Positions 9,833 to 34,147 of a stretch of 64,000 bases of DNA are shown here, piece after piece. The DNA comes from Candidatus Microgenomates bacterium (GTDB lineage: Bacteria; Patescibacteriota; Microgenomatia; UBA8517; JACQJR01). Every line of letters begins with the position of its first letter. The stretch's first letter is position 1. The stretch lies in NCBI GenBank assembly GCA_016204995.1, contig JACQJR010000001.1:473666-537665 (forward strand), given 5' to 3'. The position numbers and the translations under genes were made by a program. A model generated the notes under the pieces. It saw only the letters and a list, made by a program, of their open reading frames with translations, had not been told where the DNA came from and did not search any database.

Positions 9833-10982
9833 TTGCCCTAGCTTTAATGGCCAAAGGTTGAACGATTTGATTACTAATTTCTACTTGAATCGGGTCGAAT
9901 ATCAAACCTTCTTTCTCTACCATAATTTCATATTGGCCTGGCATTAAAGGGGTGGCGGTTAAAAAGTGGCCGACTTTATTAGTGCGTAAAGCCCGGACTG
10001 GCCGGCCCTCACTGTCTTTAATTTCAATAATGGCCGCTTCAATTACTTTATCTTGGGGATCTATGACTTGGCCAACAATAATGTTGGGAGCAGCCGGAGC
10101 AGGCGGAGGCACAGAGGATATTTCCAGCCTTGGTGCATTTAGACGGGGGCGGCCAGGGCCACGGCGGGGCATCACCTCTGGTCTAAAGACTGGCGATAAT
10201 GGTGAAAAAGGCATAGGCGTAGCACTGGTAAACATGGAAGGAGGATTTTGGGGAGGAGGGGGCGCCACCTGAACCGGTGCATTATAGGGTACAGTAGTCA
10301 CTTTTTGATTGAGCCAGACAGGAATTTGGGTTGGGGGTTGTGGGTTAGGAGTTATGGGTGGAGAAGGTGGGGCGTATTGGGTTTGCAGTGATGGTTCAAT
10401 CGCGGAAGTCTGTGCTGCCTGAACTGGTTCTACCTCTTGGACAGGCTGGACCGATTGGGGTGCCGATGTTGGCCGCAGGCCCTGAGCGGAGTCGAAGGGT
10501 GATTTGACAGTAGGAAATAAAGAAAGCATTTTTTGGAAAAATGATCGTTCTTTTTCTTCCAGGCTAGAAACAGCTGGTTCTTCAGAAGTAGCAGGGGTGG
10601 CTAGATAAATTTCCGCCGCTTGCTCTCCGCCAGGCGTGGCCGCTATTTGCATGACCGAGACCGGCCCGGTTTCCGGCGCAAAGGTGTCAAAAGCGGCTCC
10701 TTTTTGCCAGGCAAATTTAGTAGGAGAATAAATGGCCCGCAAAAAGGCCACAAACCACATTGATAAGGGCCGATCTTCAATCGGCAGGAAAGCAAAGGCG
10801 ACGCCTAAACCGCTAAACAAAAAAATAATTGGCCATTTGATAAAACCGGGTAAAGGCGAAGCGTAAAAAAGCAAAGCCACTAAGGCGCCACCAGCCACTT
10901 GAAAGAACTGCTTTAAGGTCATGTCGCCGACCAAACGGAACTCATAACTGGCAATATTTTGCGGTACCGGGTGCTGCTGCAT
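9828..10982 (-). CDS. Two-TM membrane protein with a proline-rich linker and a C-terminal transthyretin/CarbopepD-regulatory-like beta domain. First gene of the virB4 operon; possible VirB3-like role.
   Basis: N-terminal hairpin of 2 TM helices (GGALVALLFYASPLPGF / IIFLFSGLGVAFAFL). Long P/Q-rich low-complexity segment. C-terminal GQYEIMVEKEGLIFDP motif. Confidence 0.45.
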   Translation of the reverse strand: MQQHPVPQNIASYEFRLVGDMTLKQFFQVAGGALVALLFYASPLPGFIKWPIIFLFSGLGVAFAFLPIEDRPLSMWFVAFLRAIYSPTKFAWQKGAAFDTFAPETGPVSVMQIAATPGGEQAAEIYLATPATSEEPAVSSLEEKERSFFQKMLSLFPTVKSPFDSAQGLRPTSAPQSVQPVQEVEPVQAAQTSAIEPSLQTQYAPPSPPITPNPQPPTQIPVWLNQKVTTVPYNAPVQVAPPPPQNPPSMFTSATPMPFSPLSPVFRPEVMPRRGPGRPRLNAPRLEISSVPPPAPAAPNIIVGQVIDPQDKVIEAAIIEIKDSEGRPVRALRTNKVGHFLTATPLMPGQYEIMVEKEGLIFDPIQVEISNQIVQPLAIKARAN

Positions 10983-10989
10983 AAAAGTT

Positions 10990-11100
10990 TAAAATTCGAA
11001 GCACGAATATCGAAGCTCGAAACAAATTCTAATGTTTTGAATTTTAAATATTTGAAACTTAAATATTGTTTCGGATTTCGGATTTAGGATTTCGTGCTTA
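10990..11100. promoter_or_regulatory. Long imperfect inverted repeat in the divergent intergenic region between the T4SS operon and the methyltransferase gene
   Basis: ttcgaagcacgaatatcgaagctcgaaac ... gtttcggatttcggatttaggatttcgtgcttat. The arms are reverse-complementary over about 30 nt. Confidence 0.4.
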
Positions 11101-12169: not shown

Positions 12170-13120
12170 TTAGAGTGTATCTGCACATGGTTGGCAGATC
12201 TTGCACGGACCTACTTCGCGGCTTTTATTACAGACTCGGCAAACTCCAAAATGCCATCCTTCCTCATGTGTTGCTGTTTTCAAACTGCCATCAGCATTCA
12301 TTTGATAATAATTAAATTCATATCCTTGCATTAATTCTAAATTAGAAATACCGCAGCCAAATTTTTTAGTATCCATTCTCCACCCCATTTCCATCATTTG
12401 TCTTTCTGCCAAAGCTCCAGCCAGTAAATAATCGTAATTAGTTTGGGCTTCACTAATAAGAGAGATTACTGCTTGGGTAATTGAGCGCGCATCTTGTTTG
12501 GCTACTTCCTTAATTTTTTCCGGAGCGGCGGTTTTAATGGCTTGCCAGATTTGGGGTAAGGGAATAAGATTTTCCAAAAAGGTAAATTCGTCATCCGGTC
12601 TGGGAAGGTGAAAAGTCATGCTTCTGATATCTTTAATATTGGTAATCGGCGGATAGGGCATGGGTGATAAATCGGTAATTTTCCTGGCTATGTCTATATA
12701 TTTTTCCTCAATCCATGAATCAATAGGAATGCCCCAACAATTAATAATTTTCCCTGAAAGGGCCCCTTCGGGGTTGGTGGTGCTGATACCAACTACTAAT
12801 CTACCTTCTGGATAGGGTTTAGGCGGGCTGAACCAGATGGCTAGGCTATCTTCTTTTTGGCCTAGAAAATAATTTTTAAACATTAATGCAGCCAGAGCTG
12901 TCTCGCGGTCTAATTCTGTCTCCCAGGCACAACCTTCTACTAAATCTCTATCATTTTCATTAACCAGTTGATCTTGGTTTACCTTTAACTGATAAGGATT
13001 AATTCGTTGATCTGGGGGAACATCATTAACTTCAATTGCGAGAGATGCTAAATCATCCACCAGTTGGAAGGAAGAAGCTTTCTGATATAAACTGGTATCA
13101 AAGGCCAGACGTTCAGCCAT
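12170..13120 (-). CDS. Hypothetical protein with a C-terminal Cys-rich zinc-ribbon-like tail
   Basis: 316 aa, no TM. C-terminus CRVCNKSREVGPCKICQPCADTL (CxxC...CxxC...C). Confidence 0.45.
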   Translation of the reverse strand: MAERLAFDTSLYQKASSFQLVDDLASLAIEVNDVPPDQRINPYQLKVNQDQLVNENDRDLVEGCAWETELDRETALAALMFKNYFLGQKEDSLAIWFSPPKPYPEGRLVVGISTTNPEGALSGKIINCWGIPIDSWIEEKYIDIARKITDLSPMPYPPITNIKDIRSMTFHLPRPDDEFTFLENLIPLPQIWQAIKTAAPEKIKEVAKQDARSITQAVISLISEAQTNYDYLLAGALAERQMMEMGWRMDTKKFGCGISNLELMQGYEFNYYQMNADGSLKTATHEEGWHFGVCRVCNKSREVGPCKICQPCADTL

Positions 13121-13281: not shown

Positions 13282-15681
13282 ATGGATGAAACTGCCCAAG
13301 ATAATCCTATGAGCATAGAACAACCACGATCAATTGAAGAAGCTCAAGTGGCTAAAGCCGTAGAACAGGCTTCTGGTTTTGAGCAGTTCCGCCGCGCCGG
13401 CGAAATAAAATCTCCTGCAGATTTAGCACCAAGTGTCCAGGCGGTGAAAGGTGTAGAAAATATGGCACAACAAGTCGAATCAGATGAAGAGAGGAGTAGG
13501 CGTGAACAAGCAGAAAGAGAGTTTGCGGAGTTAACTCATTTAGAATCGTTAACAGCGGAGCGCTCTTTCAGAAAAATAGAGAGAGCATCAGTAGAGGAGT
13601 TGGAATATTATTCTCCAGAACAAGTAGGGCTTCTTTTCTTAAGAAAAATTGAGAATACATTAGTGGCATTACAGGAATACGGGAAAATGCCTGAAGATTT
13701 TAGATGGGTTTCTCAAAGCGAGTTAAGAGAATTAGAAAAAGTTATCCAAACATTAGAAGAATTACCAACCTCCACTGTTCAGCAAAGAATACGGCAAGGT
13801 TATCCCGAAATAAGGATGGAGCATTTAGTTAAGATGGGAAATGAGCAATTGGGAGATTATATCAAAATAGATCGGGCTTTAAAAATATATCGTAGTTTAC
13901 AGGAAGCGGTTGTTTTAGAGCCCAGAGAATTGAGGCTGCAACAAGCTTTAGAAGCTACTATACTGGTCGCTGCCAAAAAAGAGGGTGTAGAAAGAGAAAA
14001 TAAGGAAGAATCCATTAGTGAGTTGGATAAGTTGGTTAGGCGAAAAGTACAAGATGCGATAAAAGAAACTTTTGGTAGTAGAGCAGAAAAGCTTAAGGCA
14101 TTAGAAAAAGCTATGATTGGTTTTAATCATATTGTAGAGTTTTATGGTGAGGTGCAAAAACCTTTGTCTGCGGAGGTTAGAGAATATCATCATTTTGTAG
14201 GAAATGCTGCTAGAAGGGATAAGGTTGTTCCAACAGGATCTGACTACAAGGGTTTGTTCTTCGCACCCGAGCTTTTGCCTGATACCCCCCCCCTAAGCCA
14301 ATTAATAGAAGGAACATTAAGGCCTTTACTTGATGTAGTAATGGGTGAGGAGGAGAATATGCCCAATATATATATTAGAGAACCATCTGCGGAAAAAAGG
14401 AGACAGCTTTTAGAATTTTTAGAGAATAAATTATTTTATGATCAACATTTAAATGATAAAGAGATTGTTATTGATCCTTCTAAAGAGATGCACAAACATC
14501 TTGCAAATGTAGCTGCTAGGATCGCATTATTATTAATTCATCATTGGGATGTTCATGAATCAGCTGTTTGTGCTGCAGAATATGGTGAAGAAGGCAAGTT
14601 TAAAAAAATTACCGTAGAAACAAGTTACGGTGATCAATACAAAATGCAGTTTCCTGCTGCTAGAGCTATTGGGGAATGGAAAGCATTTCGTTCCCCCTTT
14701 GGCAATCCCGCCTATACCGGAGCAATGTTTGCCCTGACCGATAATTATCTTAAGGTAGTAGCTCCTTTGCTAGAAAGTAATGATGGTATTTCGTTGAGAG
14801 TGTCCTTATGGGATTTAATAAAAACCCATGGTTTTAGTTTAAAAGATGTGCCTTGGCTGGGAGAAGATTTAATAATTGATCCAAATGAGTTAATAATTAA
14901 AGAAGAAAAAGATGAAGGTAAGATAACTGCGCAAAGGCTTCCTTTAAATCTTAGAACTAACCTTCAAAATATTAAATATAGAGGTGAATCCAAAAATTGG
15001 AAGAAGATGACTGGTTTTCGAGAGGATTCGTTAGCAGTACCTTGGGGATTACATCTTGCCTATCTAGGTGCCTTTTATGATGCCATGACCACCACAAATT
15101 TTGCTAAATTACTAGAAAATATGGGCAATGTGGATTTTTGGGATGATTTTAATAAAGGCTTTGATATAGGGTCCAAAATTTATTTAAGTTCTAGGGGTCT
15201 TAACGAAGAAACAATATTTAAATTAATGCTAATTGCCAAAATTAATTTAGTGGCAGGTATAAATGCTGCTATACAAGATAAGCAAATGATTACAGATGTT
15301 GAATTACGTCGTTTGCGGACCAGGCATGGTGGTGGTGCCGGTTTAAGTGAGCAAGAAATCTTTGATGCTATTTTTAAAAGTGGTTTTTTAGCAGAGAGCA
15401 TGAATGTGGTAAAAATTGGCCAAAGTGAATACCCTATAAATATTGATGTTAGAAATTTAATAAATAATGTTAAAAAACAAAAGAGGGGTATTGTTCCAGG
15501 AGATGTATTAATAAAAGATTTGTTTAGTAATATAGAAATACAGCAAATAGAAAATAGTAAAGTCTATAGACCATACCGCTTACATCGTGAAAAAGAGTTT
15601 ACCGATCAAAAAGGAAAAGATCCTCTTTATATTATTGACGCTCTTGAGGATGCTATCGCTAATCCTCTAGATAGGGCTTGA
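13282..15681 (+). CDS. Large hypothetical soluble protein (799 aa) with an acidic coiled-coil N-terminus and no recognisable domain
   Basis: Long uninterrupted ORF with coding-like composition. Divergent from 12170..13120. No TM helices and no known motif found by eye. Confidence 0.5.
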   Translation: MDETAQDNPMSIEQPRSIEEAQVAKAVEQASGFEQFRRAGEIKSPADLAPSVQAVKGVENMAQQVESDEERSRREQAEREFAELTHLESLTAERSFRKIERASVEELEYYSPEQVGLLFLRKIENTLVALQEYGKMPEDFRWVSQSELRELEKVIQTLEELPTSTVQQRIRQGYPEIRMEHLVKMGNEQLGDYIKIDRALKIYRSLQEAVVLEPRELRLQQALEATILVAAKKEGVERENKEESISELDKLVRRKVQDAIKETFGSRAEKLKALEKAMIGFNHIVEFYGEVQKPLSAEVREYHHFVGNAARRDKVVPTGSDYKGLFFAPELLPDTPPLSQLIEGTLRPLLDVVMGEEENMPNIYIREPSAEKRRQLLEFLENKLFYDQHLNDKEIVIDPSKEMHKHLANVAARIALLLIHHWDVHESAVCAAEYGEEGKFKKITVETSYGDQYKMQFPAARAIGEWKAFRSPFGNPAYTGAMFALTDNYLKVVAPLLESNDGISLRVSLWDLIKTHGFSLKDVPWLGEDLIIDPNELIIKEEKDEGKITAQRLPLNLRTNLQNIKYRGESKNWKKMTGFREDSLAVPWGLHLAYLGAFYDAMTTTNFAKLLENMGNVDFWDDFNKGFDIGSKIYLSSRGLNEETIFKLMLIAKINLVAGINAAIQDKQMITDVELRRLRTRHGGGAGLSEQEIFDAIFKSGFLAESMNVVKIGQSEYPINIDVRNLINNVKKQKRGIVPGDVLIKDLFSNIEIQQIENSKVYRPYRLHREKEFTDQKGKDPLYIIDALEDAIANPLDRA

Positions 15682-25390: not shown

Positions 25391-25606
25391 ATGCCGGTTG
25401 ATAATTCAGTAATTTGGCTGGCTGGTAAATTATTTGCCATTGTGGCTTTTGCTATTTATGTGATTTTTGCGGCGGTGGTAGTGCGCCAGGTCTATTTAAT
25501 GACTAAAACTATTAGTGTGGGTTTTGAGTTACCTGTTCAGACAATAGCCTGGATACACCTTATAATAGCGGTGGCGATCTTATTATTTGTGGTTGTTTTT
25601 CTCTAA
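25391..25606 (+). CDS. Small two-TM membrane protein
   Basis: 71 aa, two hydrophobic helices. One-nucleotide gap from the upstream gene. Confidence 0.35.
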   Translation: MPVDNSVIWLAGKLFAIVAFAIYVIFAAVVVRQVYLMTKTISVGFELPVQTIAWIHLIIAVAILLFVVVFL

Positions 25607-25625
25607 ACGAAATTCCCTTCACCCT

Positions 25626-27413
25626 GCCATGCTGCAAATTACAAAGATTATCGGTCGTCAAACTGATGCCTGGTCTGAAGTCTACGTTAAAAACGGTTTA
25701 GTAATTTTACTAATAGCCCCCAGCCAGGAAATTGGCAGTCCCATTTTAAAAGAGATAGTTGAGTCTAATAATCTACCTTCTACCCTCCACCATCTACCAT
25801 CCGATGATATAACTGCAATTGCTTTATTATTTAAAAGCGGTTATGTCCGCGGCTGGGTTTTAGGAAATGTTCAACTCAACATTGGCCGCAATGGCAAAAC
25901 CGGCATTTTGGTGGCTGGTAAAAAAGGTGAAGCAAAATCAGTCAATGGTCCGGCAAAGCCGGGTGATACTTTGTTGTTAACAACTACTTCTTTATTTGCG
26001 GCTGTGCCGGATAAAGAAATTACGGCTGGGTTAGTCAATCCCACCAGTGAATCTTTTTCTCAAATTGCCAGTTTTATTGGTAAGTACAATAAAGATTTAG
26101 TAGCTAGTGTTTTCGTACACCTGCCTGCGCAGGCAGGCTTACCCCGATCTAATCAGGGTCTGTCAGGCAAAAAATTTAATATCAAGGTGGTGCGGGTAAA
26201 ATTGCCTAAGTTGCCCCAAGCATCCAGACGAGCTTTCAGTAATACCATATTTTTATCTTCACTTTTCCTCAAACGCTTAAGAAGGCGGGAAATTTATATT
26301 AGCGAAAACCATCCTAAAAGAAGCGCTTTTATTATGGGAATTAGCTTTTTGGTGATGGTGACCTTAGTAGTTGTAATTGGTATGCAACGATCTTCCCAAG
26401 AAACAGCTTTAGCCAAATATCAACCATTAATGATCCAAATTGGTAGCAATCTGCAAGCAAGTAAGGATTTGGTAGAGCTTAACGCGGCTCGGTCGCAAGA
26501 GCTGGCCCGTCAGGTTAAAAATGATTTAGCAAGTCTGGCCGCGGACAGTCCTAAAAATAAAAATGTACTGGAATTTATTAATCAAACAGAAAGCGACTTA
26601 AACGACTTATTGGGGGAATATCGGGTAACCCCGTCGGTGTTGGTTGATTTAAGCTTGGTCCGGGATGGATTTCAAACGGGGGAAGTAGCCCTAGATGGCG
26701 AGAAAATCACCGTTTTGGATAACCAAAAGCGTCTATTGATCTCTTTTGACTTTGCCGGCCGTAATATGAAAGTGTTGGCTGGACCGGATACAATTCCTCA
26801 AGCCAGACTGGTAGCTATTGATGACGGTCAAGTTTTTGTTTTGGACGGTCAAAGGGTGGCTCGCATTGAGCAAAGCAGTAGTCAAACCACCGCTCGTTCA
26901 GCGATTATTCCTGAAGGCAGCTGGGGCAGAATTTCCCATCTAGCCGCTTTTACCGGCAATCTTTATCTTCTGGATTCGGCTAAAAATCAGATTTGGCGCT
27001 ATAGTGAGGCAAGTTCGGAACGGGCAGGAGCAGGTGAAGCTTGGCTAGCTAAAGATACAGTTATTGATTTAAGTAATATTAATTCCATGGCCATTGATGG
27101 ATATCTTTGGTTATTGGATAAAAATGGCCAGATCAGTCGCCTGTCGCGGGGGAATAAGGTAGGTTTTAATGTGACAGGGTTAGAAAAGGCTTGGATTACA
27201 CCTGTTGCCTTATTTACCGCTGAAAATCTGAAAAATCTTTATATTTTAGATGCTGAAAAAAAGCGGGTAGTGGTAATTGATAAATCCGGTGTTTATCACG
27301 CTCAATATTTATCAGATCAGTTAAAAGAGGCAACAAATTTAGTAGTTTCCGAGGAGAATAAAAAGATGTTAATTTTTGCCGGCAGCAAAGTCTATGAAAT
27401 TGAGCTAAAATAG
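25626..27413 (+). CDS. Hypothetical protein with one mid-protein TM helix. Start placed at the internal Met (MLQITKII).
   Basis: Long ORF. TM segment SAFIMGISFLVMVTLVVVIGM. The C-terminal half is repetitive and beta-rich (possible propeller). Carries an in-frame LPAQAGL palindromic insert. Confidence 0.45.
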   Translation, partial: AMLQITKIIGRQTDAWSEVYVKNGLVILLIAPSQEIGSPILKEIVESNNLPSTLHHLPSDDITAIALLFKSGYVRGWVLGNVQLNIGRNGKTGILVAGKKGEAKSVNGPAKPGDTLLLTTTSLFAAVPDKEITAGLVNPTSESFSQIASFIGKYNKDLVASVFVHLPAQAGLPRSNQGLSGKKFNIKVVRVKLPKLPQASRRAFSNTIFLSSLFLKRLRRREIYISENHPKRSAFIMGISFLVMVTLVVVIGMQRSSQETALAKYQPLMIQIGSNLQASKDLVELNAARSQELARQVKNDLASLAADSPKNKNVLEFINQTESDLNDLLGEYRVTPSVLVDLSLVRDGFQTGEVALDGEKITVLDNQKRLLISFDFAGRNMKVLAGPDTIPQARLVAIDDGQVFVLDGQRVARIEQSSSQTTARSAIIPEGSWGRISHLAAFTGNLYLLDSAKNQIWRYSEASSERAGAGEAWLAKDTVIDLSNINSMAIDGYLWLLDKNGQISRLSRGNKVGFNVTGLEKAWITPVALFTAENLKNLYILDAEKKRVVVIDKSGVYHAQYLSDQLKEATNLVVSEENKKMLIFAGSKVYEIELK

Positions 27414-27418
27414 TCATC

Positions 27419-27859
27419 ATGCAGATTCTTAACCGCCGCGCCCCTTACGAGTACATATTATTAGACAGAATTGAAGCTGGAATTATGCTGGCTGGCAGTG
27501 AGGTTAAATCTATCAAAAACGGCCGCTTAGATCTCTCTACCAGCTTTGCCAGAATTAATAATGGAGAGGTTTATCTGGTTAATGCCAATATCCCTCCTTA
27601 CCAGGGAGGAGTACCGGAAAATTATGATCCTAGCCGTAGCCGTAAGCTTCTTTTAAGTAAAGATGAAATCCTGTCTTGGGAGACTAAATCCAAGCAGCAA
27701 AAATTGACAATTGTGCCCACCAAAGTATATACTAAAGGACAGCTGGTTAAGGTGGAATTAGCCTTGGCCAAGCCTAAACGCCAGTTTGAAAAACGTGAGG
27801 CTAAGAGAAAAAAAGATGTGGCGCGTGAGGTAGAAAGAGAACTTAGATTACGGGGATGA
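27419..27859 (+). CDS. smpB: SsrA-binding protein SmpB
   Basis: 146 aa. RRAPYEYILLDRIEAGIMLAGSEVKSIKNGRLDL...SRKLLLSKDEI is a classic SmpB sequence. Confidence 0.9.
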   Translation: MQILNRRAPYEYILLDRIEAGIMLAGSEVKSIKNGRLDLSTSFARINNGEVYLVNANIPPYQGGVPENYDPSRSRKLLLSKDEILSWETKSKQQKLTIVPTKVYTKGQLVKVELALAKPKRQFEKREAKRKKDVAREVERELRLRG

Positions 27860-28215
27860 CAGGTTTCGACGGAGAGCACCTTAACACTATAGCAAGCCGG
27901 CTTTGATGAATAGCCGTTAAACAGCATCAAAACAAAAGCGTCAACTCAAAAGGTAACGCTCCAGCATACGCTTACGCGTCTTAAACTGCTGGCATCTTTA
28001 CTAGGCTCTCCTGTGGTTTGGATAAAGGTGTAAAAATAGCAGGATGCTTTTCAAGTTTGGTTGATCAGCAAACTTGAAGAAAAGACTTTCTGAAATTACT
28101 TAAAAATGAGTGTCAATTATCAAATTTTTAAGGACATAAAATAATTGACTAAGCTTGTATAACTATAGTATTTCGGTCTTTTCGGATGAGGGTCCAATTC
28201 CCTCCATCTCCACCA
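27852..28215 (+). ncRNA. ssrA: tmRNA (ssrA)
   Basis: 5' end GGGGATGACAGGTTTCGACGG. 3' tRNA-like end GGATGAGGGTCCAATTCCCTCCATCTCCACCA with encoded CCA. The 5' GGGGATG pairs with the 3' CATCTCC. A candidate tag ORF ends ...NAPAYAYAS-stop. Confidence 0.85.
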
Positions 28216-28324
28216 TAAGATACTTTCATTTTTTTTGCGAATTCTATTTGTTTCTTTTCCTTGCCACACCCTCCCTGCGCGGAAAAAGGCAAAGTACCCC
28301 TAAAACCAATAAACTTATGTGCTA

Positions 28325-28369
28325 ACTATAGTATGTAGAACCAAAGTTAGCAAGAGCGTAGACTATAGT
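28325..28369. promoter_or_regulatory. Two copies of the palindrome ACTATAGT upstream of the C-protein gene, a candidate C-box operator
   Basis: aACTATAGTatg at 28325-28332 and gACTATAGTt at 28362-28369. The latter ends 9 bp before the ATG. Confidence 0.35.
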
Positions 28370-28377
28370 TATCAACT

Positions 28378-28590
28378 ATGAAAAGAGAGATTTTAATAAA
28401 ATTTGGTAAAAAAGTTCGTGAGCGACGCTTTGAGCTTGGATTGTCGCAAGAGGAATTAGCGGCAAGAGCGGGTGTACATCGCACCTATGTTGGCATGATA
28501 GAGCGAGCGGAAAAGAATATCACACTAACGAATATCGAAAAAATTGCAAAAGCTCTCGATTTTTCACTAGACGAAATCACGAAATTATAA
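28378..28590 (+). CDS. Restriction-modification controller (C) protein, XRE-family HTH
   Basis: 70 aa HTH (LSQEELAARAGVHRTYVGMIERAEKNITL). Gene ends 2 bp before the endonuclease gene, as in C-R-M systems such as PvuII. Confidence 0.55.
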   Translation: MKREILIKFGKKVRERRFELGLSQEELAARAGVHRTYVGMIERAEKNITLTNIEKIAKALDFSLDEITKL

Positions 28591-28592
28591 AT

Positions 28593-29189
28593 ATGGGAAC
28601 AAACGAATTAAGAAAAAGAAAAATTTGGCAGGATGTCAGCGGTGGAAAGGCCGGAGTTGCAGAGAAGAAATTTTTTGACATCTTCACGAAGGAGTTTAAA
28701 GGTACAAATTTTAGAATTCGCTCAAAACCGAGAGAATTCAAAGATATTTACTCAAAAATAAAACTTACCGCAGAAATATTAAAGGGTATCTATAACCCAA
28801 ACGAAACTTGGGTACACGGACTAATTCCTGACTACGCAATAGATAACATCAAGACAGGGAAAACACTGTATGTAGAGGTTAAAAGGCAGGATGGGTGGGT
28901 TGAGGGTAAACCTTGCAAAGCTGGTAGAGGAAATGCCCATGAGAGATCGAATAAACTGTTCACTCCAGGAATACTAAAATTAATGAGAGAACACGGAAAA
29001 ATAGGAAAGGACGTGTTGCCGTTCTGGGTTGTTTTTCAGGGAGATATAGCTCGCGACCCCAAAAGAGTTAGGGAAATACATTTTTGGTACGGGGATTATT
29101 CCGACAACTTCTTTTTATGGAGTAATTCTTTGGATGAGAAATCTGTAATTAATCACTTCAACAAAAAACTGAAACGCTTTTTACTTTAG
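28593..29189 (+). CDS. Putative type II restriction endonuclease (PD-(D/E)xK)
   Basis: 198 aa. LIPDYAIDNIKTGKTLYVEVKRQ gives a PD...EVK catalytic motif. Lies between the C gene and a convergent methyltransferase. Confidence 0.45.
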   Translation: MGTNELRKRKIWQDVSGGKAGVAEKKFFDIFTKEFKGTNFRIRSKPREFKDIYSKIKLTAEILKGIYNPNETWVHGLIPDYAIDNIKTGKTLYVEVKRQDGWVEGKPCKAGRGNAHERSNKLFTPGILKLMREHGKIGKDVLPFWVVFQGDIARDPKRVREIHFWYGDYSDNFFLWSNSLDEKSVINHFNKKLKRFLL

Positions 29190-29191
29190 TT

Positions 29192-29908
29192 CTACCGTTC
29201 CGTAAAAACATCTAAGCCCCACGCTGTCCATCCATCGGCTTTATTGCGAGCAAATAACTCAATTCGTTTGTGGTGAGGAAACATTTTTTCTATCGCCCCC
29301 ATCACTTCTTTTGGTTTTTCGCTGTGCTCTCCTCTCCGAACTCGCACAAGCTGTTTAATATTTCTTGCGCCTCTCGGTTTTGGTATTTTGCCGCGCTTAA
29401 ATACCAAGCATAACTCACAATTTGAAAGTGTATACTGGCCTGGATTGTGATTCATTTTGTCCCAAACAAAAGCAACGGTTTTGTAATTAAATCCCCACGC
29501 CTCGCCCAATGCGACTGCTTGGGCTAAATGAGGATTTGATGTCCACATGAACAAAAGGCAATCATTATTTGCAATCTCTTGTACTGGTAATTTTTTTAAC
29601 TCTTCCGTTTTGAGTGTTGGATACTTAAACGATGCCGAGCTTATAAATATTTTTCGGGATAAATCGATTTTATCGACGCTAGCACTACTTTTATCAAATT
29701 GCAGTTTGCCATTGTAGTCCCAAGGAGGGTCGGCGTAAATTATATCGAACTTTTGATTGGGTAATTTTGGATAAAGCTCATCCAAAGTGTTTTGCCTTGT
29801 TCGTTTCTTGGCGTCGTGTTTGTAAATTGAATAACCAGTTTGTTTTTTCGATAGACCAAACATAGTTTGTTGACTAATTTCTCTCATGTTGATAACTGTA
29901 GTATACAC
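29192..29908 (-). CDS. MT-A70-family N6-adenine DNA methyltransferase. Start is GTG at 29908 or ATG at 29887.
   Basis: Motif IV IIYADPPWDYN. Convergent with, and 2 bp away from, the endonuclease gene. Confidence 0.7.
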   Translation of the reverse strand: MYTTVINMREISQQTMFGLSKKQTGYSIYKHDAKKRTRQNTLDELYPKLPNQKFDIIYADPPWDYNGKLQFDKSSASVDKIDLSRKIFISSASFKYPTLKTEELKKLPVQEIANNDCLLFMWTSNPHLAQAVALGEAWGFNYKTVAFVWDKMNHNPGQYTLSNCELCLVFKRGKIPKPRGARNIKQLVRVRRGEHSEKPKEVMGAIEKMFPHHKRIELFARNKADGWTAWGLDVFTER

Positions 29909-29944
29909 ATGCTAAAATAACTATGCAAGTGGAATAAGCACAAA

Positions 29945-30694
29945 ATGACAAAATCTTTCAAGGAAATAGCTCATGAAATCCTAAAGGGAGCAGGTAAGCC
30001 GCTTCACAGTAAAGAAATAACGAGAATAGCAAAAGAACGCGGCTTGCTTCAAACCGAAGGAAAAACGCCAGAGGCGACAATGAACGCCCAGCTTCTTGTT
30101 GATGTAAATAGCAGAGGTGAGTTATCAAGCTTTAAAAAAGTTGGACCAAGCACATTTACTATCAATGATAAAAAAGTTGAAATTCAAGAAGAAGCAAAAC
30201 CTGATCGCATCATCGAGGAACTGGAGCTTGAGGAAGAGAAACAGGTTGAGGGTGGATACATTGGAAAAGCTGGTGAACATACCGTACTTTCAGAACTTCT
30301 ATTCCGCGGATACAATGCCGCGCTTATGTCGGTTGATGTTGGCGTAGATATTCTAGCGACGAGAAATAACGAAACTTTCCATATTCAGGTTAAAACGCGG
30401 AATATCAGCAAGCGACATGATGCTTTCCATTTCAATTTACGAATTGTCTCGTTTGAGAGGCACAACGCAGGAAAAACTTTTTATATCTTTGTCTTGAGAG
30501 AAAATGGAAAGCTAGATTATTTGATTTTGCCACTGCTTGAAGTAGAAAAAGCGATAGAGCAAGAATTTGTTCATGTTGTTGGGAAAGGGAAACTCTATCG
30601 CATTACAATTACACGCAGAGAGGGCAAAATTTATCTTGGCAGACGAGATAATGAAGTTTCGTACTTTTTGAATAAATGGGATATTATTAAATAG
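29945..30694 (+). CDS. HARE-HTH + Mrr_cat-like restriction endonuclease (Mrr-like)
   Basis: N-terminal FKEIAHEILKGAGKPLHSKEITRIAKERGLLQTEGKTPEATMNAQL is a HARE-HTH domain. C-terminal DVGVDILA...FHIQVKTR is an Mrr-type D..(Q)xK core. Confidence 0.55.
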   Translation: MTKSFKEIAHEILKGAGKPLHSKEITRIAKERGLLQTEGKTPEATMNAQLLVDVNSRGELSSFKKVGPSTFTINDKKVEIQEEAKPDRIIEELELEEEKQVEGGYIGKAGEHTVLSELLFRGYNAALMSVDVGVDILATRNNETFHIQVKTRNISKRHDAFHFNLRIVSFERHNAGKTFYIFVLRENGKLDYLILPLLEVEKAIEQEFVHVVGKGKLYRITITRREGKIYLGRRDNEVSYFLNKWDIIK

Positions 30695-30774
30695 AATTCG
30701 CCAAAAAATTTTTGTGAAGCCCAAGCCAAGGCGCGGCGGTTAAGAATAGTCATGACCTATTATATACTAGCCTA

Positions 30775-31455
30775 ATGGGTTTATCTCTGCTTGACCTAAT
30801 TTTTCCCAGGAAATGTGTTAGCTGTTTTAAGTTTGGTAGTTATCTCTGTAATGATTGTAGAGATAAAATTAAGCCTGGCGCACCGCAGATTTGTCCGGTC
30901 TGTGAGCGAGCTGCTATTGACGGATTAACTCATGTTAGTTGTAAAAATAACCTTGCCTTAGATGGTTTGAGCTATTTATTTATCTATAAACCGCCAATTT
31001 CTCTGCTTTTGAAGAAGCTAAAGTATCAATTTGGGACGGATGTGAAGAATGTTATTTTAGAATTGGCGTTAAATGAACTTAAAAACTACCTCTTAATGAA
31101 AAGAAAATTAACCTTAATTCCTATTCCTTTACATAATTTGCGCCGTAATTGGCGGGGATTTAACCAGTCGGCTTTATTGGGTCAGGAAATAGCTAATAAG
31201 CTGGGCTGGGAATTTCGTGAGGACCTGCTTTGGCGCATAAAATTAAAACCACCTCAAGCGAGCCTTAAAGGCAAAGCCCGCCAAGCTAATGTATCCGGCA
31301 TTTTCTCAACTAATCCTAAGAGCCTAACAGCCCAATTACCTAATGTCCTCTTATTTGACGATGTCTGGACCACTGGTTCTACCATGAAAGAAGCGGCCAA
31401 GGCGCTGAAAAAGGCCGGAGTCAAATTCGTTTGGGGAATAACAATTGCCAGATAA
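30775..31455 (+). CDS. comFC: ComF family phosphoribosyltransferase (competence protein ComFC)
   Basis: N-terminal double zinc ribbon (CVSCFKFGSYLCNDCR...CPVCER...HVSC). C-terminal PRTase motif VLLFDDVWTTGSTM. Confidence 0.7.
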   Translation: MGLSLLDLIFPRKCVSCFKFGSYLCNDCRDKIKPGAPQICPVCERAAIDGLTHVSCKNNLALDGLSYLFIYKPPISLLLKKLKYQFGTDVKNVILELALNELKNYLLMKRKLTLIPIPLHNLRRNWRGFNQSALLGQEIANKLGWEFREDLLWRIKLKPPQASLKGKARQANVSGIFSTNPKSLTAQLPNVLLFDDVWTTGSTMKEAAKALKKAGVKFVWGITIAR

Positions 31456-31460
31456 AAAAT

Positions 31461-31787
31461 CTACTCTTTAAACAAAGTTACTTTATTTTGTGAGTCATAT
31501 CTAGTTCCAGTAATTGAGTCATCTACCAGTCTGTCATATGCATGAGGGTTGATTTTAATATAAAAACCAGTTGCTGTTCTTTCAAGAATAACACCATCGC
31601 CTAAGTCATCAAAAAGTAGCTTTTGCACCACTACGGTTAAATCTTTTCCATTATCAGCTAGGCAGGAAATTGTTAAAGGAATTCCGATAATTTTATTGCC
31701 TTCTATCATTATTTGGCCTAGCTTCCGGGTTTCATCCTCGGAAAGGTAAATGTTTAGATCATCATTGAAATATTCAGCGCGTCCCAT
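31461..31787 (-). CDS. Small hypothetical protein. Start trimmed to the internal Met (MGRAEYF) to remove the out-of-frame overlap.
   Basis: The ORF-track 172 aa call overlaps the upstream gene by 158 nt in another frame. The shorter version removes that overlap. Confidence 0.35.
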   Translation of the reverse strand: MGRAEYFNDDLNIYLSEDETRKLGQIMIEGNKIIGIPLTISCLADNGKDLTVVVQKLLFDDLGDGVILERTATGFYIKINPHAYDRLVDDSITGTRYDSQNKVTLFKE

Positions 31788-31821
31788 AATCTTTTTCTTC
31801 AAGGGGGTTAATAAGAAATTA

Positions 31822-32700
31822 TTATTTAAGTAAGTTCTCGTCGATATGCCCCGATGCACTTGTTCCGATCTTTCTCCACGATACATGCACATCGCCAGTT
31901 TTTTTATCAAGCGTATTGGTAACGATATGGTACGTGTATTCGGCGGGTACGCCCCAGTCTGCAGGGTGTGTAAGTGCAACCTTAAATGAAATTATTACAT
32001 TGTCTGTATTCTCCATAATCGATACGTTATGAAGCTTGTTTTCGGTAATATAGGTCCAACCTTGACCATAGTAATATTCAAGAAAATTTAAAAAACTGTC
32101 AGCGGTTTTAGGAGAATATTTAAATGTACCAATCGATAGTGAATAATCACTGCCTAGAGTTATGGTATGTTCTTTGGTAGTTGGAGTAAAATAATTGCAA
32201 TTTTCTAATAGAATATGTCTCCAAAAGGATTCTCCCGCAGTTGAAATTACATAGTGGTAATGGGTATCAGCTTTCCAGTGATCAACAAGGTGCCAGGTAC
32301 CATAACCTTCTGCCATTCGTTGTTTTTTCTGTTCGGGTGTCTTTTGAGGGTCATCAAGCACGATGTCGTGATTTTCAGCGGCTAGATATTTTGTAAAAAT
32401 CGACATAGCTGAATCCTCATCGGTTCCACAGAGTTTATAGTACTGTGTTGATGTTGAATCAGTTGGAGTTAATATTCTTGCATCTATGAAATTATATGGC
32501 ACATTATTGGGATTTTTTACATATTTACCGAAACCCAACGATTCAGAGACATTCTTTATTTGAATAACTTTAATTGTCTTGATATCTTGATTTTTATTCG
32601 TTAGTTTCTCTTGTCTAGAAAAAATAAAATAGCTACCACCAATTAGGATTGTACTAATAATTACAATTAGGGCTAGATTCACAAATCCTTTTTTATTCAT
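31822..32700 (-). CDS. Hypothetical membrane-anchored protein. Start moved to MNKKGFV; the track's N-terminal extension runs over a tRNA.
   Basis: TM helix FVNLALIVIISTILIGGSYFIF follows the proposed start. The first 48 codons of the track ORF overlap tRNA-Ser. Confidence 0.45.
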   Translation of the reverse strand: MNKKGFVNLALIVIISTILIGGSYFIFSRQEKLTNKNQDIKTIKVIQIKNVSESLGFGKYVKNPNNVPYNFIDARILTPTDSTSTQYYKLCGTDEDSAMSIFTKYLAAENHDIVLDDPQKTPEQKKQRMAEGYGTWHLVDHWKADTHYHYVISTAGESFWRHILLENCNYFTPTTKEHTITLGSDYSLSIGTFKYSPKTADSFLNFLEYYYGQGWTYITENKLHNVSIMENTDNVIISFKVALTHPADWGVPAEYTYHIVTNTLDKKTGDVHVSWRKIGTSASGHIDENLLK

Positions 32701-32704
32701 ATCT

Positions 32705-32789
32705 GCGGAAGGGGCGAGATTCGAACTCGCGTAGGGATTACTCCCTATGGTTTTCAAGACCATCCCGTTTGGCCGCTCCGGCACCCTTC
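32705..32789 (-). tRNA. tRNA-Ser (anticodon TGA)
   Basis: Minus strand GGAAGGG..CTTGAAAAC (anticodon loop)..long variable arm GGGAGTAATCCCTAC..GCGAGTTCGAATCTCGC..CCCTTCCG. The 7 bp acceptor stem is perfect. Confidence 0.8.
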
Positions 32790-32850
32790 CTAGACTTGCG
32801 CGATAAGCGTAGCTTGGCCCTTGCGGGCTAAACCGCTCGGCCAACCCTCC
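32790..32850 (-). other. tRNA-like 5' fragment (Ser/Leu-type D-arm, GGAGGGTTGGCCGAGCGG...) directly upstream of tRNA-Ser(TGA); possible remnant
   Basis: Shares its acceptor/D-arm start with tRNA-Ser(GCT) at 33535 (GGAGGGT) and the GCCGAGCGG D-loop. Lacks a T-arm. Contains a GCCC-GCAA-GGGC tetraloop hairpin. Confidence 0.3.
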
Positions 32851-32855
32851 AATAA

Positions 32856-33116
32856 TTATTTAGCCATTCCCTCAAAAAGAAGCTTTTTGATTAAAGCTTG
32901 ATAGGGCACATCCATTTTATTAGCCGCTATTTTCAATCTCTCAATCAAAGTTTGCGGTAAGCGGATAGTAATAGGTTTGCTAGTTAATTTGAGGTTGGGA
33001 AACTTTACATTTTTGACAGAACTATAGTCAACATATTCAGTAGAATCATGAGTTTGCCAAAATTTCCTTTCCTCAGCTTCATTTTTAAAGTGGGGTATGG
33101 TTTTTAATTGTTTCAT
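32856..33116 (-). CDS. brnA: BrnA antitoxin (CopG/RHH-like)
   Basis: 86 aa. FKNEAEERKFWQTHDSTEYVDYS...RLPQTLIERLKIAANKMDVPYQALIKKLL matches the BrnA family. 4 bp overlap with brnT. Confidence 0.75.
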   Translation of the reverse strand: MKQLKTIPHFKNEAEERKFWQTHDSTEYVDYSSVKNVKFPNLKLTSKPITIRLPQTLIERLKIAANKMDVPYQALIKKLLFEGMAK

Positions 33117-33409
33117 ACTTTTTTATAATAAACCTCTCTTTCTTTTTTATTTGCTAGCCTGCCTGATATGACCCTTACTTGATTACTCCTAACAGTAAAT
33201 ACCACAAACAAGATTTTATTCTCTGTAGTTTTACCAATGGCGATAAAACGTTGCTCTTGTTCTTGATGTTTAATATCCTCTTCTATTTTAACATTTTCAT
33301 CCAAAAATATTTCTTCAGTTTCATTGGGTGTAATATTATGTTTTTGATAACTCTTATCAAGGTTGCCTTTATCCCATTCAAACCCAGAAAGTTTTTTAAA
33401 ATCAGTCAC
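33113..33409 (-). CDS. brnT: BrnT toxin (DUF497 ribonuclease toxin)
   Basis: 98 aa. FEWDKGNLDKSYQKHNITPNETEEIF...RFIAIGKT...ILFVVFTVRSNQVRVISGRLANKKEREVY matches the BrnT family. Confidence 0.8.
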   Translation of the reverse strand: MTDFKKLSGFEWDKGNLDKSYQKHNITPNETEEIFLDENVKIEEDIKHQEQEQRFIAIGKTTENKILFVVFTVRSNQVRVISGRLANKKEREVYYKKV

Positions 33410-33410
33410 T

Positions 33411-33445
33411 GTACATATTATATATGTACAAATTTATATTGTCAA
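33411..33445 (-). promoter_or_regulatory. brnTA promoter with an overlapping near-palindromic operator
   Basis: Minus strand reads TTGACA (33440-33445), 17 nt, TATAAT (33417-33422). The -10 lies inside the palindrome gtacatattatatatgtac (33411-33429). Confidence 0.45.
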
Positions 33446-33534
33446 CATATAATTTTTGTTGAATATGATCTTTCTGCTGAACAGAAACGGTTAGTTTACT
33501 AATTCCCATAATTAGTTTATAATTGGGCTGCCCA

Positions 33535-33618
33535 GGAGGGTGGGCCGGACGGTAAGGCACAGGTTTGCTAAACCTGCAGGGCGAAAGTCCTGAGTGGGTT
33601 CAACTCCCACACCCTCCG
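33535..33618 (+). tRNA. tRNA-Ser (anticodon GCT)
   Basis: GGAGGGT..CAGGTTTGCTAAACCTG (anticodon loop)..long variable arm..GGTTCAACTCC..ACCCTCCG. Confidence 0.8.
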
Positions 33619-33625
33619 CTTGTAT

Positions 33626-34147
33626 ATGGATACAACTGCCGAACAAAACAGGGATAGTACTTTGAAAAAAGAGGAGATGCTGTTTTCTTGGAAAGCTCCT
33701 GTGAGGCCATTTAAGGCTCGGGGAAGCCAGTTTTTTTCAACAGTAGTCTTGTTAGGCATTTTACTATCAGTAATTGGCTTTGTTTTAGAAGGACCGATGG
33801 TAGTAGTTCTAGTCTGGGCAGTGGTATTTTTGGTTTTTGTCTTGTTTAGCGTTCCGCCGGAAGAGATTGAATATACTATTACTAATAAAAATATCGTTAT
33901 CGCCGGTAAAAAATATGGTTTGGATGAAGTATCGCGTTTTTGGTTAACCGAAAGGTGGGGGCATAATTTATTAGTTTTTGAGATGCCAGTGAGGTTTCCA
34001 GGCAGACTAGAAATGGTAATTAATTCTGGGGATCGCGAGAAAATTAAAGAGACTTTAGAAAATTATTTAACATATGAGGAAGAACCACCGGGTATGGCTG
34101 ATAAAACAGCTAGCTGGCTGTCTAAAAAGCTATCGCTTGATAATTAA
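33626..34147 (+). CDS. Hypothetical membrane protein with two adjacent TM helices. ATG start at 33626.
   Basis: FFSTVVLLGILLSVIGFVL and VVVLVWAVVFLVFVLF helices. The track start at 33620 is a TTG abutting the tRNA. Confidence 0.4.
   Translation: MDTTAEQNRDSTLKKEEMLFSWKAPVRPFKARGSQFFSTVVLLGILLSVIGFVLEGPMVVVLVWAVVFLVFVLFSVPPEEIEYTITNKNIVIAGKKYGLDEVSRFWLTERWGHNLLVFEMPVRFPGRLEMVINSGDREKIKETLENYLTYEEEPPGMADKTASWLSKKLSLDN

Follow-up and report, generated by a model that had tools for sequence, protein, structure and literature searches.

A probable MunI-family restriction-modification cassette with a HARE-HTH nuclease gene between ssrA and comF of a Candidatus Microgenomates genome

The locus described here lies between ssrA, the gene for transfer-messenger RNA (tmRNA), and comF in a 64,000-nucleotide stretch of a Candidatus Microgenomates genome (contig JACQJR010000001.1, positions 473,666 to 537,665 of the forward strand). 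This whole stretch is called the window, and coordinates are counted from its first letter. Four intact open reading frames (ORFs) follow ssrA in the order C, R, M and ORF4, before comF, and the distance between ssrA and comF is 2,559 nt. A first-pass annotation of the sequence had described a 70 aa controller, a 198 aa nuclease, a convergent methyltransferase and a 249 aa protein at this place, and every one of these features was recovered where it had been put. The tmRNA gene is intact and encodes its own CCA end. A second copy of the four genes was found on a 3.3-kb metagenome contig, L096 (L numbers are our handles for comparison loci). The features of the locus are as follows.

27852-28215, plus strand: ssrA (tmRNA), left flank of the insertion (ARAGORN; Rfam RF00023, 145.8 bits, model positions 1-374, full length)
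28230-28249, no strand: left inverted-repeat remnant TTTTTTTGCGAATTCTATTT, 20 nt, 95% complementary to 30689-30708; homology to L096 starts here
28320-28377, plus strand: C/R regulatory region with C-box-like TATA-centred palindromes; promoter roles putative
28378-28590, plus strand: C, controller protein with a helix-turn-helix (HTH), 70 aa (Pfam HTH_3 8.7e-18; PADLOC Control_protein 4e-21)
28593-29189, plus strand: R, MunI-family type IIP restriction endonuclease, 198 aa (Pfam RestrictionMunI 5.3e-67; PADLOC REase_II 1.1e-65)
29192-29887, minus strand: M, MT-A70 / M.MunI-like N6-adenine DNA methyltransferase, 231 aa from the ATG at 29887, convergent with R
29888-29906, no strand: second, putative operator-like site GTTGATAACTGTAGTATAC, abutting the M start codon
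29889-29918, plus strand: ORF4 promoter-like site, TTGATA and TG-n-TAAAAT at 18 nt, a consensus match (10/12) with an extended -10 TG
29945-30694, plus strand: ORF4, 249 aa; HARE-HTH 4-72, disordered acidic linker 77-107, PD-(D/E)xK nuclease 108-249
30689-30741, no strand: right inverted-repeat arm remnant, overlapping the ORF4 stop codon; blastn 90% over 50 nt to the L096 arm
30775-31455, plus strand: comF (ComF/GntX family), right flank of the insertion (NCBIfam ComF 1.2e-27)

The flanks of the four genes were compared with those of five relatives (L016, L018, L019, L021 and L031), each of which has the order smpB-ssrA-comF. In all five, comF lies 0-50 nt after the 3' end of ssrA, and none of them has a homologue of C, R, M or ORF4. 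Since comF abuts ssrA in these relatives and the four genes are missing there, the segment in the window is an insertion. comF of the window is 51% identical to that of L016, which starts 50 nt after ssrA. The island at ssrA that had been proposed from the sequence is thus upheld by the empty flank in 5/5 relatives in this gene-content comparison and by the occurrence of the cassette elsewhere in L096.

The four proteins encoded in L096 are 89-95% identical to those of the window, and DNA identity is 87.5% over exactly 28230-30739. The flanks differ, with the L096 cassette located approximately 200 nt 3' of tRNA-Ala(ggc) and not at ssrA. Both borders of homology are sharp: on the left, identity is 90% in 28230-28249 versus 29% in the preceding 14 nt, and on the right it is 85% over 30695-30741 and 26% beyond, the homology to L096 ending at about 30739-30741. 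Between the two copies, all four genes show a pattern of purifying selection, as codon positions 1+2 are 91-99% identical and position 3 is 68-76% identical (R: 94/99/69% conserved at positions 1/2/3). These observations support the view that window ~28230-30740 is a 2.5-kb horizontally acquired, integrase-free defence cassette which appears to be mobile as a unit. Where the first-pass annotation had left the choice between an old insertion and acquisition by another route, the L096 copy with its 144-nt inverted repeats sharpens the question to the movement of a whole cassette.

The absence of an integrase, also pointed out earlier, holds: no integrase or transposase was found between ssrA and comF or in the ORFs scanned across 25587-34147. 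Likewise, a search of 27800-31500 for a further direct copy of the ssrA 3' end gave nothing, no target-site duplication was seen, and GC content and skew run through the cassette without anomaly. A search for within-strain presence/absence polymorphism returned only contigs which fit the island being present, among those with the exact SmpB or ComF of the window; sequencing runs SRR12113383, SRR12113420 and SRR12113430 contain this strain. Searches of PLSDB plasmids gave neither ORF4 nor R, and only two full-length ORF4 relatives, at 48% identity, occur in viral contigs; there is consequently no evidence from these searches for a plasmid or phage vehicle of the cassette.

The hexamer GAATTC is rarer than expected in the window (13 vs 23.7), and 4 of the 13 occurrences fall within the 2.5-kb cassette (binomial P ~1e-3). 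They lie at 28239, 28714, 28734 and 30694, and two of these sites form the cores of the inverted-repeat arms. Such a pattern suggests past exposure of the host to an EcoRI-like enzyme together with a foreign origin of the cassette.

R matches the Pfam family PF11407 with 225.8 bits (cut-off 25), residues 7-191 aligning to model positions 6-191 of 193. Against R.MunI (PDB 1D02), the match extends over residues 1-197 (5.3e-63) with 100/197 identical residues (51%). The motif P79-D80...E95-V-K97 is in register with R.MunI, and the AGRGNAHERS segment is identical in both proteins. In MunI and EcoRI, this segment reads the outer base pair as well as the inner AATT. The roles of the MunI residues D83/E98/K100 and R115...R121 are reportedly those assigned by Deibert et al. 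1999. The earlier call of a nuclease with PD...EVK is confirmed by this full-length family match, and by its sequence R is to be regarded as a MunI-family enzyme specifically, more than a generic PD-(D/E)xK nuclease.

M matches Pfam MT-A70 (5.9e-23, 82.1 bits, cut-off 23.9), PADLOC MTase_II (1.9e-63) and MT-A70-family structures in PDB (best 2.6e-13), and its DPPW catalytic motif lies within FDIIYADPPWDY. The stop codons of M and R are 2 bp apart, in agreement with the convergent DPPW methyltransferase of the first-pass annotation. The open frame reaches a GTG at 29908 (ORF 29192-29908), and the true start is probably the ATG at 29887 (231 aa), as the L096 homologue (92.6% identical) begins at the equivalent ATG. 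M.MunI belongs to a circularly permuted class of N6A methyltransferases (PMC4738411). Together, C, R and M appear to form a complete C-regulated MunI-family type IIP restriction-modification (R-M) system with CAATTG as the predicted target. As such it is of a known kind, a regular and well-formed representative of the MunI family.

C is an Xre-type HTH protein, co-directional with R, and 2 nt separate its stop codon from the R start. It shares 88.6% identity with its counterpart in L096. Over the 58 nt upstream of C, identity between the two copies of the cassette rises to 98.3%, as against ~74% for other non-coding cassette DNA and 68-76% for third codon positions, and this stretch reads as a clear phylogenetic footprint. 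It contains the boxes AAC-TATA-GTA (28324-28333) and GAC-TATA-GTT (28361-28370), a degenerate box at ~28338-28350, and an internal inverted repeat. The palindrome ACTATAGT occurs four times in the window versus 0.56 expected, three of the four copies being within 210 bp. TATAGT at 28364-28369 is a possible -10 of a near-leaderless C transcript. Leaderless C transcripts are common, and C.MunI is among the controller proteins with experimentally defined sites (PMC2632904).

The operator-like site next to M (29888-29906) repeats, in reverse complement, the site that immediately precedes C, with 89% complementarity over 19 nt to 28358-28376. It is kept in L096 with one mismatch, and L096 has the same inverted-repeat pair. 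The ORF4 promoter-like site is the top-scoring one in the region and has its -35 inside the M-side operator; judging by this overlap, C may modulate ORF4 as well.

The 12-mer TAACTATAGTAT from the distal C-box (28323-28334) recurs in the tmRNA gene at 28160-28171, 44 nt before the ssrA 3' end, and this ssrA copy is not conserved in the relative L016. It could be due to chance (roughly 1e-2), a C-binding site in ssrA, or a trace of the recombination which placed the cassette.

ORF4 consists of two domains. Residues 4-72 match HARE-HTH (Pfam PF05066; 7.4e-19, 68.4 bits, cut-off 25.9), as do all 32 family members examined, and in the model this part folds as a winged helix that matches those of linker histones, forkhead domains and the RNA polymerase delta subunit. 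The AlphaFold model (predicted local distance difference test 78) has two confident domains and a disordered linker. The family comprises 906 matches of ~247 aa each, 50-94% identical, in Patescibacteria and Omnitrophica where named. In 32 diverse members, E111, E117, R121, D131, G133, D135, Q148, K150, T151 and N153 are invariant, and the active-site residues are placed on the model helix 109-120 and strands 136-140 and 143-153. PDDEXK_5 is matched by 32/32 members (best 1e-6). With E111, D135 and Q148-x-K150 invariant and this model matched throughout the family, the 249 aa protein does have a nuclease core, and it is a further member of the computationally known HARE-HTH-nuclease class. No experimental characterization of HARE-HTH-nuclease fusions was found in the literature, though for more than 10 years they have been predicted to read modified DNA.

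The description of ORF4 as Mrr-like stands in part. The winged helix/nuclease architecture and the D...QxK motif agree with it, and the Mrr catalytic domain has been described as "PD-QXK" (PMC11037411). Membership of the Mrr family was not borne out, as the matches are sub-threshold (best 0.011) and ORF4 of the window itself matches neither Mrr_cat nor Mrr_cat_2 at E <= 0.1. The nearest sequence and fold relatives of the nuclease appear to be PDDEXK_5, I-Ssp6803I and Hjc. Distant relatives of ORF4 (28-39% identity) were also seen in viral contigs of ~7-80 kb (L178-L197); they mostly match the nuclease domain (approximately residues 100-249) and lack the HARE-HTH region, the exception being L178-L180, which match residues 7-196.

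The neighbourhoods of ORF4 homologues were assessed from exact-protein look-ups and 80 metagenome loci, giving 48 distinct upstream contexts when the neighbour was clustered at 60% identity. The first and second upstream genes mostly belong to R-M systems: type I (HsdR, HsdM, HsdS), type III and type ISP, type II/IIG amino-methyltransferases (D12, N6_N4, Eco57I, MmeI, EcoRI methylase, MT-A70), and the restriction endonucleases AlwI, XamI and MunI; Shedu and GmrSD were found as other defence genes. The nearest upstream gene is co-directional with the ORF4 homologue in 43 of the 48 contexts, with a median gap of ~14 nt, and DNA homology among the loci ends at the ORF4 borders. In 36/48 contexts versus 3/86 control anchors, the 6 kb upstream include an ORF with a (D/N/S)PP(Y/F/W/H) motif (Fisher p ~8e-19).

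These counts of amino-methyltransferase motifs do not sustain the view that such a nuclease beside an N6-methyladenine (m6A) methyltransferase is an unusual pairing, and fusions of this sort have already been published. In E. coli K-12, mrr adjoins the m6A hsd R-M genes. HARE-HTH has been found fused to endonuclease domains in N6A R-M systems (PMC4738411), and genes for fusions of HARE-HTH to a restriction endonuclease (REase) directly follow Dnd modification genes and also count among the backup effectors of BREX loci, discrimination of modified DNA being the proposed role (PMC10853773, PMC12839542).

Genes for C-like HTH proteins, 34-51% identical to C of the window (tblastn), head several operons ending in an ORF4 homologue, namely of type III in L101 (561-779), type I in L155 (273-482) and type IIG in L153 (~1224-1394), and the same C-like gene is seen at L165 159-368 and L166 331-543. 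Controller proteins are normally regarded as a type II feature. A general architecture with C at one end and ORF4 at the other was considered and rejected, as C-like HTH genes head 6/48 representative contexts plus L153; the arrangement is recurrent, not general.

The 144-nt inverted repeats around the L096 cassette are 98% complementary and run to the contig end. Comparable long repeats bracket a C-like HTH gene, an R-M system and an ORF4 homologue in L101 (106 nt; type III Mod+Res) and in L155 (91 nt; type I HsdMS+HsdR). Inverted repeats were seen at 3 of ~80 ORF4 loci, each with an arm at the contig end, and at none of ~70 others with adequate flanks. The arms are mosaics of GC-rich hairpin-forming modules, e.g., GGGCGAGGCGGAA...TTCCGCCTCGCCC, which match no Rfam family. 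Such modules recur with 73-98% identity across unrelated contigs of the candidate phyla radiation (CPR) from different samples, often at a short distance 3' of ORF4 homologues, and they are present as well in ordinary CPR loci retrieved through SmpB (L066, L067, L072). They are located as follows.

L096, 352-699: repeat modules
L157, 6730-7000: repeat modules
L152, 3422-3700: repeat modules
L101, 120-420: repeat modules
L067, ~10965-11006 and 14165-14212: repeat modules, ordinary locus
L072, 11419-11459: repeat module, ordinary locus

The arms may be dispersed intergenic repeats of AT-rich CPR genomes, similar to repetitive extragenic palindromes or miniature inverted-repeat transposable elements, and as such may promote recombination. 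We do not call the arms transposon ends, given the dispersed modules and the occurrence at 3/~80 loci only; no flanking direct repeat or transposase was seen.

We place the probability at roughly 0.7 that the whole locus is an acquired cassette made up of a C-regulated MunI-family R-M system and an accessory nuclease, ORF4. In such a system, C would be made from a weak, probably near-leaderless promoter and would first activate and later repress the C-R operon via the TATA-centred C-boxes at 28320-28377. It would also bind the related operator at 29888-29906 and thereby lower the expression of M, on the pattern of Esp1396I; ORF4 might be subject to the same control. M would methylate an adenine in CAATTG, and R would cut unmethylated CAATTG as a homodimer.

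The function and substrate of ORF4 we infer from its domains and company. Our tentative preference, held at a little under even odds, is that ORF4 is an accessory type IV-like nuclease against foreign modified DNA, probably with cytosine modifications. Its winged helix would recognize DNA with a modification, probably on cytosine, that is foreign to the host, and the nuclease domain would cut this DNA; phages able to evade the methylation-sensitive R-M partner would thereby be dealt with. Near relatives of ORF4 coexist with many methyltransferases of differing specificity for adenine or N4-cytosine, so that a nuclease responding to m6A in general would turn on its own host. Cytosine modifications have been judged the likelier HARE-HTH ligand (PMC11037411, citing Aravind & Iyer 2012).

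Several observations weigh against this explanation. On the side of ORF4, the PDDEXK_5 match (Pfam PF11645) of the window protein itself is weak (residues 106-177, E 0.011, 16.2 bits vs a threshold of 26.1), Mrr families are weakly matched across the family (Mrr_cat_2 in 19/32, best 0.011; Mrr_cat in 2/32, best 0.034), and Q148 takes the place of the canonical acidic residue in the nuclease motif. The top fold match of the nuclease is a homing endonuclease (I-Ssp6803I) and no restriction enzyme, and no sequence-level relative of ORF4 was found in PDB by single sequence or family profile. A C5-methyltransferase-like ORF was adjacent to no ORF4 homologue, a result of low power since such ORFs are rare in control CPR loci too. 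On the side of the R-M system, 51% identity to R.MunI falls short of proving the same specificity, and CAATTG is not avoided in the window (25 vs 26 expected), which fits a recent arrival; an inactive system would fit too. The spacing from the C-box to the start codon departs from the usual 17-18 nt (PMC2632904), promoter-like sites in the region are no more numerous than the shuffled expectation, their assignments being consensus matches, and there is no terminator or insulating structure between the highly expressed ssrA and C (fold z = -0.99). Finally, the inverted repeats are built from dispersed modules and bracket only 3/~80 loci.

The kinship with I-Ssp6803I raises the alternative that ORF4 is a nuclease for mobility of the cassette, free-standing and of the homing type, whose double-strand breaks near tRNA-like genes or repeats copy ORF4 and the R-M operon into new genomes. 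We consider this unlikely. The family is conserved at full length under purifying selection, unlike typical decaying homing genes, and its co-directional position ~14 nt from many unrelated R-M operons points to co-expression and a shared function. Moreover, no conserved target sequence was seen beside the loci, the far-side flanks differ in every context, and inverted repeats bracket only 3 of ~80 loci.

The tight co-directional linkage of ORF4 to R-M systems of every type would also suit a guard nuclease that stays silent until an anti-restriction protein blocks its partner, or a non-catalytic regulator with an inactive Q148 domain. PrrC in type Ic loci, an abortive-infection backup, provides an analogy for such a guard. 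The glutamine in place of the canonical E/D and the overlap of the ORF4 promoter-like site with the putative C operator in the window speak for this reading, as do the HARE-HTH-REase fusions among BREX "backup effectors" (PMC12839542) and the I-Ssp6803I-like domains reported as oligomerization-activated effectors in SPARDA and Hna. Nevertheless, the partners span type I, II, IIG and III systems as well as Shedu and GmrSD, which makes a specific protein-protein guard interaction unlikely, and E111, D135, Q148 and K150 are invariant as expected of the active PD-QxK site attributed to Mrr (PMC11037411), which disfavours a mere regulator. Guard or regulator, the idea seems to us rather improbable.

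Reading of 6mA has been shown for prokaryotic winged-helix domains that are fused to nucleases (PMC11037411), and for HARE-HTH the same role has been put forward as a possibility (PMC4738411). ORF4 might thus be a type IV enzyme dependent on N6-methyladenine, its winged helix acting as a DpnI-like reader; it would then need a specificity compatible with M, a concern already raised in the first-pass annotation. This is very improbable, as homologues with 50-94% identity sit beside D12/Dam-like, N6_N4, Eco57I-type, EcoRI methylase, MT-A70 and type I HsdM enzymes, and a general m6A-dependent nuclease would be toxic to most such hosts.

Least credible of all is that there is no functional island, the four genes being ancestral and lost in the relatives, or the R-M system an inactive relic: the even GC and skew, the missing integrase and direct repeat of the ssrA 3' end, the lack of CAATTG avoidance, the distance of the nearest available relative (SmpB 74%) and the presence of the genes in all contigs of the same strain would agree with it, but ssrA abuts comF in 5/5 relatives, the cassette recurs with sharp homology borders in the unrelated context of L096, the four genes and the operators all show constraint, and GAATTC is enriched in the cassette while depleted window-wide.

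Beyond the preferred reading of an acquired R-M cassette with an accessory nuclease, a bolder idea is that the ORF4 family, sometimes together with inverted dispersed GC-rich repeats and a C-like HTH gene at the other end, constitutes an integrase-free modular chassis for R-M cassettes in CPR, which we regard as doubtful. The payload would vary (type I, II, IIG, III) and ORF4 would be the constant part, either mobilizing the cassette through breaks beside tRNA-like genes or repeats, or serving as a universal backup effector for its R-M partner; this view of its role is held with equally little conviction. If true, it would be a new principle of how R-M systems spread or are safeguarded in reduced genomes.

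Outside the cassette, smpB (27419-27859; Pfam SmpB 5.6e-48) lies directly before the tmRNA gene. Its nearest homologues are found in metagenome-assembled genomes labelled Roizmanbacteria, Paceibacterota, Nomurabacteria and similar, with a best identity of 74%. The record behind L016, the closest relative (CAYTZB010000006.1), is titled "uncultured Gammaproteobacteria", while its gene order and homologues point to the CPR lineage of the window; probably this is a taxonomic mislabel. Immediately upstream of smpB, a 608-aa protein without a Pfam domain is encoded at 25587-27413. The gene is syntenic upstream of smpB in L016, L018, L019, L021 and L031 (27-35% identity) and thus represents a lineage-specific gene. 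In the smpB neighbourhood of the relative L018, a group I intron (Rfam RF00028, 62.1 bits) adjoins tRNA-Met at 12613-12859.

A second variable segment of the window, 31461-33500, lies between comF and tRNA-Ser(gct). It includes two minus-strand ORFs of 172 and 340 aa without a Pfam match, a tRNA-Ser(tga) in inverted orientation at 32705-32790, as well as a BrnA (CopG_antitoxin, 1.9e-29) / BrnT (3.9e-22) toxin-antitoxin pair at 32856-33409. In L016, a tRNA-Ser/Arg cluster directly follows comF, with its tRNA-Ser(tga) in forward orientation.

The locus is an unusually complete example of an ultra-small CPR genome acquiring defence, in the form of a probably self-timed type II system with recognizable operators, set between housekeeping genes without a recombinase, and it offers a handle on the movement of R-M cassettes in CPR genomes. 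ORF4 is a compact, conserved representative of the HARE-HTH-nucleases with a confident two-domain model, and the near-obligate 3' linkage of its family to CPR R-M operons is a useful annotation rule. As the specificity of its partner is predictable (CAATTG, m6A), the cassette may be a convenient test bed for HARE-HTH recognition, a question which also touches eukaryotic ASXL and related chromatin proteins with this domain.

Among known systems, the closest is MunI (Mycoplasma sp.; R.MunI, M.MunI, C.MunI; CAATTG), for which Siksnys et al. 1994 reportedly described the original three-gene convergent layout. The window shares with it an R alignable end to end, a DPPW-type M, and C before R. It differs in the host, a CPR bacterium, in the moderate identity, in the fourth gene ORF4, in the inverted-repeat remnants and in the position beside ssrA.

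For regulation, the model is Esp1396I, in which C first switches C-R on and later represses it, and also acts as a repressor of M through a symmetric GAC-TATA-GTC site where M transcription begins (PMC3488213). Similar to Esp1396I, the window has convergent C-R and M, GAC-TATA-GTC-like boxes before C, and a single symmetric site at the M start (PMC3488213). Unlike Esp1396I, the half-sites are degenerate (AAC/GAC/TAC...GTA/GTT), the third box lies over the putative -10, and the M-side operator overlaps the promoter-like site of a divergent fourth gene, all of these operators being predicted from sequence.

As in islands at ssrA 3' ends, a foreign defence segment absent from relatives lies directly 3' of the tmRNA gene. 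The cassette is unlike such islands in having neither a tyrosine integrase nor an att repeat and in starting 15 nt after the CCA.

With regard to ORF4, I-Ssp6803I, a homing endonuclease of a tRNA intron, and the archaeal junction resolvases Hjc are single-domain proteins with canonical acidic residues, whereas ORF4 adds the HARE-HTH and linker, the invariant Q148 and an R-M operon context. E. coli Mrr likewise has an N-terminal winged-helix reader and a C-terminal PD-QxK nuclease (PMC11037411), but the Mrr_cat and Mrr_cat_2 matches of ORF4 are sub-threshold, HARE-HTH stands in place of Mrr_N, and the closest fold is that of I-Ssp6803I/Hjc. The architecture, the place downstream of modification genes and the predicted role in dealing with modified DNA are those of fusions of HARE-HTH to a restriction endonuclease fold described by comparative genomics (Aravind & Iyer 2012, as cited in PMC4738411, PMC10853773, PMC12839542). 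Unlike the described fusions, ORF4 is a second nuclease beside a cognate R.MunI-like restriction endonuclease, and it represents a compact CPR family (~247 aa) which is found with all R-M types.

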